Source of the DNA: Candidatus Thorarchaeota archaeon
GTDB taxonomy: Archaea > Asgardarchaeota > Heimdallarchaeia > Heimdallarchaeales > Heimdallarchaeaceae
Reading direction: 5' to 3'
Assembly: GCA_048883065.1 (NCBI GenBank)
Contig: JBHLQZ010000003.1
Location: 7,096 to 39,095 of the forward strand
Length of the DNA stretch: 32,000 bases
The translations under genes were made by a program, and so were the position numbers. This document shows, piece after piece, positions 8,105-8,320 of the stretch (position 1 is the stretch's first letter; each line of letters starts with the position of its first letter). The notes beneath the pieces are model-generated. The model saw only the letters and a list, made by a program, of their open reading frames with translations, ran no database searches and was not told where the DNA came from.

Positions 8105-8110
8105 AAAAAA
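8105..8110 (-). terminator. T6 terminator of the 5S-like RNA gene
   Basis: On the - strand, UUUUUU directly follows the 3' strand of the 10-bp terminal helix. Confidence 0.5.
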
Positions 8111-8291
8111 CCTAGTAAAGTTTTCAGGTTCGGAATGAGTCTGAGTGTTACCCCTTCACTATGGCCGCGACGCATCGCAGCGAACGGCTGTTCCCAAGCC
8201 CTCTCGGAACTTAGTACAAAGCCACACGTGGAAGGCCTTAACTTTCCCGACCATCTAGCACACAACTAGATGTTGTCTGACCTTACTAGGC
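8111..8291 (-). rRNA. 5S rRNA-like RNA gene with circularly permuted domain order
   Basis: GC-rich island. On the - strand, the 3'-half 5S motifs GAAAGUUAAGGCCUUCC (8230-8246) and loop E/helix IV UUGUACU...GAGA...GGGAAC (8190-8219) come first. Next is helix I closed by a UGCG loop (8164-8181). The 5'-half motifs GGCCAUAGUGAAGGGGUAACAC (8145-8166) and UCAGACUCAUUCCGAACCUGA (8124-8144) come last. The ends pair as CCUAGUAAGG/CUUUACUAGG (8281-8290 with 8111-8120). A TATA box lies upstream and a T6 run downstream. Confidence 0.6.
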
Positions 8292-8311
8292 AAAAGAATA
8301 GGAAAAAAATT

Positions 8312-8320
8312 ATTTTTAAT
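8312..8320 (-). promoter_or_regulatory. TATA box for the 5S-like RNA gene
   Basis: The - strand reads AAAG-ATTAAAAATAA. The box ends about 21 nt upstream of the first nucleotide of the terminal helix (G at 8291). A purine-rich BRE-like stretch precedes it. Confidence 0.4.

Follow-up and report, generated by a model that had tools for sequence, protein, structure and literature searches.

The window analysed here is a 32,000-nucleotide (nt) stretch of contig JBHLQZ010000003.1, from an Asgard archaeal metagenome-assembled genome (MAG). Its minus strand holds, at 8105–8295, a 5S ribosomal RNA (rRNA) gene in swapped order: the 3' half comes first, followed by a UGCG-capped helix I and then the 5' half. 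We consider it very likely that this locus, circularly permuted as it is, serves these archaea as their functional and probably sole 5S rRNA gene, and that it is neither a pseudogene nor an assembly artefact. The GC content of the RNA is ~0.51–0.55 against a background of ~0.33, forming a GC-rich island, and the RNA measures ~180 nt in genes of the Heimdall type compared with ~120 nt for an ordinary 5S rRNA, a terminal helix and an extra hairpin adding ~60 nt. Read from 5' to 3' on the minus strand, the layout is as follows.

8310–8320, minus strand: TATA-like box AUUAAAAAUAA, preceded by a conserved CCAAUAGCAAAG element at 8321–8332 (putative promoter)
8281–8291, minus strand: 5' end of the RNA, G8291 followed by CCUAGUAAGG, the 5' strand of the new terminal helix (pairs with 8111–8120)
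8249–8277, minus strand: extra hairpin, in Heimdall-type genes only, with a conserved stem 8266–8272/8252–8258 and the loop UUGUGUG
8182–8246, minus strand: canonical 5S 3' half, holding GAAAGUUAAG, the helix II 3' strand (8228–8236), helix V, loop E and helix IV
8164–8181, minus strand: helix I closed as a hairpin, GCUGCGA-UGCG-UCGCGGC, with the UGCG loop at 8171–8174
8124–8170, minus strand: canonical 5S 5' half, of which 8124–8163 corresponds to positions ~76–121 of the covariance model R1 (see below)
Within 8124–8163, minus strand: loop A CCAUAG, helix II 5' strand GUGAAGGG (8152–8159) and loop C CAUUCCGAAC, read from the sequence
Within 8124–8163, minus strand: helix III, UCAG (8141–8144) with CUGA (8124–8127), from the sequence and from covariation across lineages
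8121–8123, minus strand: AAA linker, just before the 3' strand of the terminal helix
8111–8120, minus strand: 3' strand of the terminal helix, CUUUACUAGG (pairs with 8281–8290)
8105–8110, minus strand: U6 run directly after the terminal helix, a putative archaeal oligo-T terminator

The RNA has the three-domain secondary structure of 5S rRNA, with helices I–V and loops A–E. The 5' strand of helix II pairs with 8228–8236 and so bridges the two swapped halves, loop E reads UUGUACU/GGGAAC, and helix IV is capped by a GAGA loop D at 8202–8205. The usual 5S motifs are kept (GGCCAUAG, CAUUCCGAAC, AAGUUAAG, the GUACU/GGGAA loop E and a GNRA loop D), and those of loops A, C and E, together with an AAGUYAAG segment, form invariant alignment columns. 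What departs from convention is the position of the ends: the break point falls within loop B, on its 3' strand, with helix III on one side and the AAGUYAAG segment on the other, and the ends pair in a terminal helix of 10 base pairs (bp), including one G·U (8281–8290/8111–8120). The canonical 3' half aligns to positions ~60–120 of the Rfam 5S model RF00001, and to positions 1–75 of R1.

This permuted layout had been proposed in an earlier, sequence-only reading of the window, and re-reading the minus strand gave the sequence as transcribed there, with the 3' half ahead of the 5' half, the UGCG-closed helix I, the 10-bp terminal helix and the T6 run after the 3' end all at the coordinates it had given. 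Some details needed correction. The extra hairpin, described as a stem of 10 bp, is present, but only its inner 7 bp are conserved and covarying, the outer 3 bp not being conserved in relatives. A TATA-like box likewise exists; it ends 18 nt upstream of G8291, however, and not ~21 nt as had been stated.

Scanning the window with Rfam at gathering thresholds yielded tRNA only and no 5S, a negative that is uninformative alone, since a permuted gene is beyond the reach of a linear model. In a permissive scan of 8000–8400, RF00001 was found at 8172–8295 (minus strand) with 23.3 bits (threshold 38), the 5' half of the model being forced onto non-matching sequence; the 5'-half motifs GGCCAUAG, GUGAAGGG and CAUUCCGAAC sit downstream of this linear match. 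It was the sole match to the 5S clan in that scan, and none was reported for the mitochondrial permuted family mtPerm-5S, in a setting where overlapping clan members were kept only if higher-scoring.

We then approached the permutation with two mirror-image covariance models. The first, R1, was built from 15 ordinary, non-Asgard 5S genes (6 bacteria, 8 Nitrososphaeria/Thermoproteota and 1 Thermoplasmata), which came incidentally from the genome scan described below and score 63–109 bits with Rfam. Each was cut four nt after CCGAAC, its native ends were joined with UUCG, and the products were aligned (alignment A2); RNAalifold supplied the structure, consisting of helices II, IV, I (as a hairpin) and III. 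Helix V is unpaired in R1, as MAFFT misaligns the bacterial against the archaeal sequences, and the model is thus conservative. On the 32-kb window R1 gave a single match, at 8124–8244 (minus strand), covering model positions 1–121 of 121 with 64.6 bits and E = 7.6e-14. All 27 Asgard genome loci searched with it matched at full length (63.7–92.5 bits). On canonical genes, even its own source genes, the model found two adjacent halves scoring only 20–51 bits.

The second model, R2, was made from 16 Asgard sequences re-permuted in silico, that is, opened at the closing loop and joined across loop B (alignment A6; the openings of 3 of the 16 were set by hand). Given no structural hint, RNAalifold folded A6 into the textbook 5S structure, with helices I, II, III, V and IV, helix I open, and 33 pairs of which 25 are compensatory. 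R2 matches canonical 5S genes of Nitrososphaeria, Thermoplasmata, a haloarchaeon and many bacteria at full length (50–97 bits, E from 1e-12 to 1e-26). On the native window it returns order-inverted halves, 8175–8293 (3' half, 49.9 bits) and then 8068–8170 (5' half, 27.9 bits), and the other native Asgard loci likewise give two order-inverted half matches. This is the behaviour that the sequence-only reading had predicted for a permuted gene. The locus is thus homologous to bona fide 5S genes, and it does not have their linear order, 5'-I-II-III-III'-II'-V-IV-IV'-V'-I'-3', with termini in helix I.

The gene is also conserved in place. Close relatives of the neighbouring HypE protein (66–92% identity) all come from Heimdallarchaeaceae or Heimdallarchaeota, among them the closed genomes of Candidatus (Ca.) Heimdallarchaeum aukensis and H. 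endolithica. Around these HypE homologues synteny is conserved, with an unannotated gap upstream of hypE, and each such gap holds the RNA of the window at 84–91% identity (blastn), while the flanking HypE protein is 66–77% identical. The 5S locus is accordingly syntenic across Heimdallarchaeaceae, both closed Ca. Heimdallarchaeum genomes included. Because the permuted model gives a single full-length match (E = 7.6e-14) and the identity of the RNA exceeds that of the neighbouring HypE, the locus is far beyond chance. An alignment of these syntenic homologues has the permuted order throughout, with compensatory changes visible.

Covariation was examined in two further alignments. In a cross-lineage set of 22 distinct sequences (A3), the paired fraction in helices II, IV, I and III is 98.8%, and 15 of 22 pairs carry double changes, including 6/6 pairs of helix II; none of 500 shuffles reached any of these measures, and partners slid out of register were 33–54% paired. 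The other alignment (A4) is a MAFFT alignment of 25 full-length Heimdall-type genes, not fitted to structure, onto which the complete structure was written by hand. Here 97.4% of positions pair, as against 28–50% for slid partners, and double changes occur in 25/50 pairs, again values that 0/500 shuffles reach. The terminal helix has double changes in 9 of its 10 pairs and 98% of cells paired. For the 7-bp stem of the extra hairpin the figures are 97% paired and 3/7, and for the closing hairpin of helix I 99.4% and 3/7, the latter with compensatory variants such as GCUGGAU/AUCCGGC and GCUGCGC/GCGCGGC. Helices II, V and IV have double changes in 5/8, 3/6 and 2/8 pairs, respectively. Helix III is invariant within A4; it covaries between lineages, UCAG/CUGA versus CCGU/ACGG. 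All canonical helices, as well as the new elements, are maintained by compensatory substitutions, and this includes the terminal helix and the closing stem, for which the sequence-only reading had proposed a check of covariation in related genomes.

The terminal stem is found in every lineage, with 9–16 bp, in sequences that are unrelated but self-complementary; among lineages with a unique stem, the 5' flank of a gene ranks its own 3' flank 1st to 3rd of 34 as pairing partner. In Heimdallarchaeum-type genes the stem occupies a shifted position, as seen in folds. Minimum free energy (MFE) folding of the window RNA as a single sequence (z = −2.8) recovers the terminal helix, the extra hairpin and the closing hairpin but misfolds the 5S core and is therefore not decisive, and the same three elements form in unconstrained MFE folds of all five first homologues. 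Two permuted copies each are present in H. endolithica (CP084167.1; L081:5762–5882 and L105:7141–7261) and in MAG 8H_bin2 (L043:728–848 and L054:2842–2962). The cores of the paralogues within one genome are nearly identical; their terminal helices and extra hairpins are wholly different, each self-complementary, which suggests 5S heterogeneity and fast evolution of the extension.

The signals flanking the gene fit the permuted unit. Heimdall-type genes are preceded by an element CCAAUAG(Y)AA-N-AUU(A/C)AAAAA, centred ~24–27 nt before the first base of the terminal helix, Jord and Baldr types have UUUAUAU boxes at 24–27 nt, and Njord types have UUUAUAAA at 36–40 nt, with the reservation that automated calls of the helix start are noisy where U-rich leaders pair with A-rich trailers. 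A distance of ~24–27 nt is the normal archaeal spacing from TATA box to transcription start; the Njord spacing implies a short leader of ~15 nt. In most homologues a T-run comes after the 3' strand of the terminal helix. The promoter-like boxes and T-runs thus flank the permuted unit, and none precede the canonical 5' end, which is internal.

We propose that the unit would be transcribed on its own, from a BRE (transcription factor B recognition element)/TATA promoter ~25 nt before the terminal helix to an end at the oligo-T run, and that the linear permuted RNA would adopt the usual three-armed 5S shape and enter the central protuberance of the large subunit as the sole 5S species. The terminal helix would hold the ends together, as helix I normally does, and protrude like a small expansion segment. 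Such a gene could have originated when a canonical gene was duplicated in tandem, its outer half-copies were then lost and the spacer shrank to a tetraloop.

Neither R1, R2 nor Rfam revealed a canonical 5S in the window or in ~50 related loci of ~8–21 kb each. At gathering score, Rfam finds no 5S in the Heimdallarchaeaceae loci L002, L005, L008 and L010, nor in the Baldr, Jord and Njord loci. For the two closed Heimdallarchaeum genomes, the authors reported that no 5S gene could be predicted (Wu et al., 2022). Both of these genomes carry the permuted gene, which probably explains the failure.

The distribution of the permuted gene was surveyed by scanning a genome collection with a pattern in which the 3' strand of loop E is followed first by loop A and next by loop C. 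This returned at least 119 stretches with at least 23 permuted genes, as judged by motif context and R1 score; the other stretches among the matches listed (~80%) are either canonical 5S genes that happen to have TGGGAA upstream, or mere chance matches. Many of the permuted genes among the matches listed are from Heimdallarchaeota MAGs, including AB_125 and both closed genomes, and the same matches include at least one Jordarchaeia, at least two Baldrarchaeota, at least one Njordarchaeota and at least one GC-rich 'Promethearchaeati' MAG, all of the Asgard kingdom. A stricter metagenome scan, based on the invariant spacing GTACT-N16-TGGGA, returned 24 stretches; 20 of them proved to be true permuted genes (62–82 bits), of Heimdall, Njord or Jord type. 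No Loki- or Thor-like permuted type was among the 24, which, given our own expectation that Loki and Thor are well represented in sediment, is weak evidence that they lack the permuted form. Synteny of hypE, used toward Hodarchaeales and Kariarchaeaceae, gave no synteny and no match, and an L7Ae anchor, aimed at Loki, Thor, Odin and Hod, led to Njordarchaeales and to unrelated thermophiles only.

The Heimdall, Njord, Jord and Baldr types all share exactly one break point, which follows the 3' strand of helix III and precedes AAGUYAAG. Loop B becomes a three-way junction through the terminal helix, and a four-way junction in Heimdall types, to which the added hairpin is confined; Njord, Jord and Baldr types lack it. 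Closing stems are longer in the Baldr, Jord and Njord types (8–13 bp), with UUCG, UACG, GUUA or UUUAU loops. On Njord-type contigs (L110:2004–3504; L137:6413–8912) the permuted 5S lies ~1 kb from the ribosomal protein genes L7Ae and S28e and adjoins PCNA or UPF0147; in a protein search, the closest non-Njord relatives of this L7Ae came from thermophiles, for example Thermococcus and Desulfurococcales. Long tRNA matches of 109–141 nt, probably intron-containing tRNA genes, occur near 5S genes in Baldrarchaeota and in a Nitrososphaerota MAG (L129:551–659 and 4085–4206; L102:4443–4566; L024:6393–6533).

Several considerations weigh against the locus being the functional and only 5S gene. As to expression, RNA ends and ribosome association, its function is deduced from the sequence. 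The absence of a canonical 5S draws on the authors' statement for the two closed genomes and, elsewhere, on loci of ~8–21 kb. For bins of Jordarchaeum, Borrarchaeum and Kariarchaeum, two MAG papers list a '5S rRNA gene', and these calls may be partial matches to the permuted gene, or real canonical genes. Lastly, covariation in the terminal helix would be equally expected of a transient processing stem.

This last point leads to an alternative that we regard as unlikely, namely that the gene is permuted while the mature RNA is not a linear permuted molecule. The terminal helix would then be a processing stem, the ends being trimmed and ligated to give a circular 5S rRNA, or the circle being re-opened in the closing loop to give a canonical linear one. 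Models for both routes exist in the permuted signal recognition particle (SRP) RNA of Thermoproteus, which is circular, and the permuted tRNA genes of Cyanidioschyzon, whose products are re-opened. That the paired 5' and 3' ends are conserved and covarying in every lineage would suit such processing, and the apparent ~15-nt leader between TATA box and helix in Njord types would imply some 5' processing; in Heimdall, Jord and Baldr types, however, the distance from the TATA box places transcription start right at the beginning of the helix, with no leader to remove. Circularisation of 16S and 23S precursors is known from archaea, and in Halobacterium and Sulfolobus circular forms of 5S have been observed, but these 5S circles were interpreted as minor or degradation forms. 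Archaeal circularisation relies on a bulge-helix-bulge (BHB) motif in the cases compared below, and a geometric search for one between the 5' and 3' regions of 12 representatives gave 0–3 matches, compared with 0.2–1.6 in shuffles, non-conserved and with none in half of the lineages. Because these matches are at chance level only, a splice-and-circularise route is unsupported, and the circularisation that the sequence-only reading had considered is speculative; the terminal helices, moreover, are continuous over their 9–16 bp. The closing loops are stable tetraloops, mostly UNCG, on covarying stems of 7–13 bp, and resemble a permanent cap and not a cleavage site. For the mature topology we therefore favour the linear permuted RNA over a circular one.

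It is very improbable that the locus represents a pseudogene in decay, a chimeric assembly or a non-ribosomal RNA derived from 5S (mobile or regulatory) with the true 5S elsewhere: standard tools do not call it 5S and some genomes have two copies, but >40 independent assemblies, produced by different studies, share this architecture, two closed long-read genomes among them, strong purifying selection and compensatory covariation extend to all helices, the 1–2 copies per genome lie at syntenic positions, unlike a dispersed repeat, the hallmarks that contact 23S rRNA and proteins (loops A, C, E and the GNRA loop D) are kept, and no canonical 5S is predictable in the closed genomes. Misassembly was rejected on that recurrence, which includes two long-read closed chromosomes, and a pseudogene and a mobile 5S-derived element on conservation, covariation and the syntenic 1–2 copies; a tandem 5S pair was rejected too. 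This agrees with the sequence-only reading, which had held that this is not a broken pseudogene.

In the window, the 5S island lies between a flavodoxin gene (7576–8073, plus strand) and a divergent tRNA gene, a conserved neighbour that is not part of the RNA:

8416–8500, plus strand: tRNA-Ser(GCU), found by Rfam (54.9 bits) and ARAGORN

The same tRNA-Ser(GCU) arrangement is seen in the relatives' loci L002, L005, L008 and L010. The wider neighbourhood comprises gyrB-gyrA, a MiaB-like enzyme, an RPA-like protein, DUF5752, hypE-hypF and an Mrp/complex-I-like hydrogenase module. The flavodoxin gene, between the DUF5752 and 5S genes, is specific to the source genome, and relatives have at its position a YccF-like gene (L008) or an open reading frame (ORF) of 57 amino acids (L010). 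Both Ca. Heimdallarchaeum genomes have gyrA inteins, and H. endolithica also a gyrB intein, with LAGLIDADG homing-endonuclease domains (L002:3174–6983; L005:1–3164 and 3175–6984); gyrA and gyrB of the window (43–4659) are without inteins. The [NiFe]-hydrogenase/Mrp-like membrane module (12160–20520 and 22123–23223) encodes NuoH/J/K/L/M/N-like subunits and a Complex1_49kDa/NiFeSe large subunit; it stands with the maturation genes hypE, hypF and hypD and is kept in Heimdallarchaeaceae. The source MAG is labelled 'Candidatus Thorarchaeota archaeon' at NCBI, and HypE (8580–9608) matches the protein of that MAG at 100%. Since the close relatives of HypE and of the 5S gene are all Heimdallarchaeaceae, the Thorarchaeota label is probably wrong. 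A second GC-rich island, at 26598–26905 (plus strand), is an archaeal SRP (7S) RNA gene in normal order; RF01857 matches it at full length (1–317) with 86.9 bits and E = 7.8e-20, just below the gathering score of 96.5, hence it is missed by the default scan, and it overlaps the spurious ORFs 26445–26786 (minus strand) and 26881–27165 (plus strand).

The Asgard gene is a bona fide 5S rRNA gene with a new, lineage-wide topology, of which we found no earlier description in the literature searched. A stable, lineage-wide permutation in free-living cells overturns the view of 5S as the most invariant and 'easily identified' rRNA. Ca. Heimdallarchaeum is a member of the Asgard group that is usually taken to stand nearest to eukaryotes, and the permutation probably also solves the puzzle of the 5S missing from its closed genomes. 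The gene is overlooked, or called in part, by standard pipelines (Rfam/Infernal, and probably also RNAmmer and barrnap), which lowers the 'high-quality' scores of Asgard MAGs under the Minimum Information about a Metagenome-Assembled Genome (MIMAG) standard; a dedicated covariance model would fix the missed calls. The topology raises questions about how the 5S ribonucleoprotein of these archaea assembles with uL5 and uL18, and about their central protuberance. Should the mature RNA turn out to be circular, it would be the first circular 5S working in a ribosome.

Both for Asgard phylogeny and for the question of how eukaryotes arose, the permutation further offers a discrete structural character. 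A tentative scenario, to which we give less credence than its opposite, is that it arose once, in the ancestor of Heimdallarchaeia (including Njordarchaeales), Jordarchaeia and Baldrarchaeia, and is their only 5S. If so, it would be a rare and nearly irreversible change bearing on where eukaryotes branch, as the eukaryotic nuclear 5S is canonical: the eukaryotic stem would have split off before the permutation or come from a never-permuted lineage (Hodarchaeales, if canonical), or the gene would have been re-permuted.

In the largely open-access literature that we searched, the only permuted 5S is the brown-algal mitochondrial one, with none reported for Asgard or Heimdall archaea; the statement in the sequence-only reading that none had been described in archaea thus agrees with our search. 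Recent work on the circularisation of archaeal rRNA treats 5S as unaffected, and work on Asgard rRNA calls it 'essentially constant'. Compared with the canonical 5S of RF00001, the Asgard RNA shares the five helices, loops A–E, the usual motifs and their covariation, but its halves are swapped, helix I is capped and without termini, and the termini lie in loop B, where they form an extra helix.

The permuted mitochondrial 5S of brown algae and other stramenopiles (Rfam mtPerm-5S; Valach et al., 2014) resembles the Asgard gene in being natural, in having helix I as a closed hairpin with the ends elsewhere, and in being missed by standard models; its mature form is believed to be permuted as well. 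The algal RNA, however, has its ends in loop A, between the alpha and gamma domains, at an open three-way junction, keeps the beta-to-gamma order, has no terminal helix, and is organellar and AT-rich. The Asgard break lies within the beta domain (loop B), giving the order gamma, alpha and (part of) beta, with ends that pair over 9–16 bp, in a cellular archaeal genome.

Nature has here made a change that engineers also made, capping helix I, in this case with the termini moved to loop B. In E. coli with an engineered circularly permuted 5S (cp5S), the native ends were joined by a tetraloop, the ribosomes were active and the cells viable (Huang et al., 2020). Since these cells live with a capped helix I, a functional Asgard 5S is plausible. 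Unlike the Asgard gene, the cp5S is artificial, its new ends, opened at loop C or D, join it to 23S rRNA so that it is not a free molecule, and it caused assembly defects.

The permuted 23S rRNA of Pyrococcus/Thermococcus and circular 23S rRNA are likewise archaeal RNAs whose mature topology departs from the ancestral order. These depend on BHB excision and ligation of a precursor, normally ordered or permuted, whereas the Asgard permutation lies in the gene itself and no BHB is detectable. Thermoproteus, with its permuted SRP RNA gene, provides another archaeal RNA of altered topology, also BHB-dependent. Finally, the 5S rRNA of Halococcus morrhuae carries a 108-nt insertion, so that an extra helix is tolerated in both; there, however, the insertion sits in a normally ordered gene whose termini are unchanged, while in the Asgard gene the termini themselves have moved.

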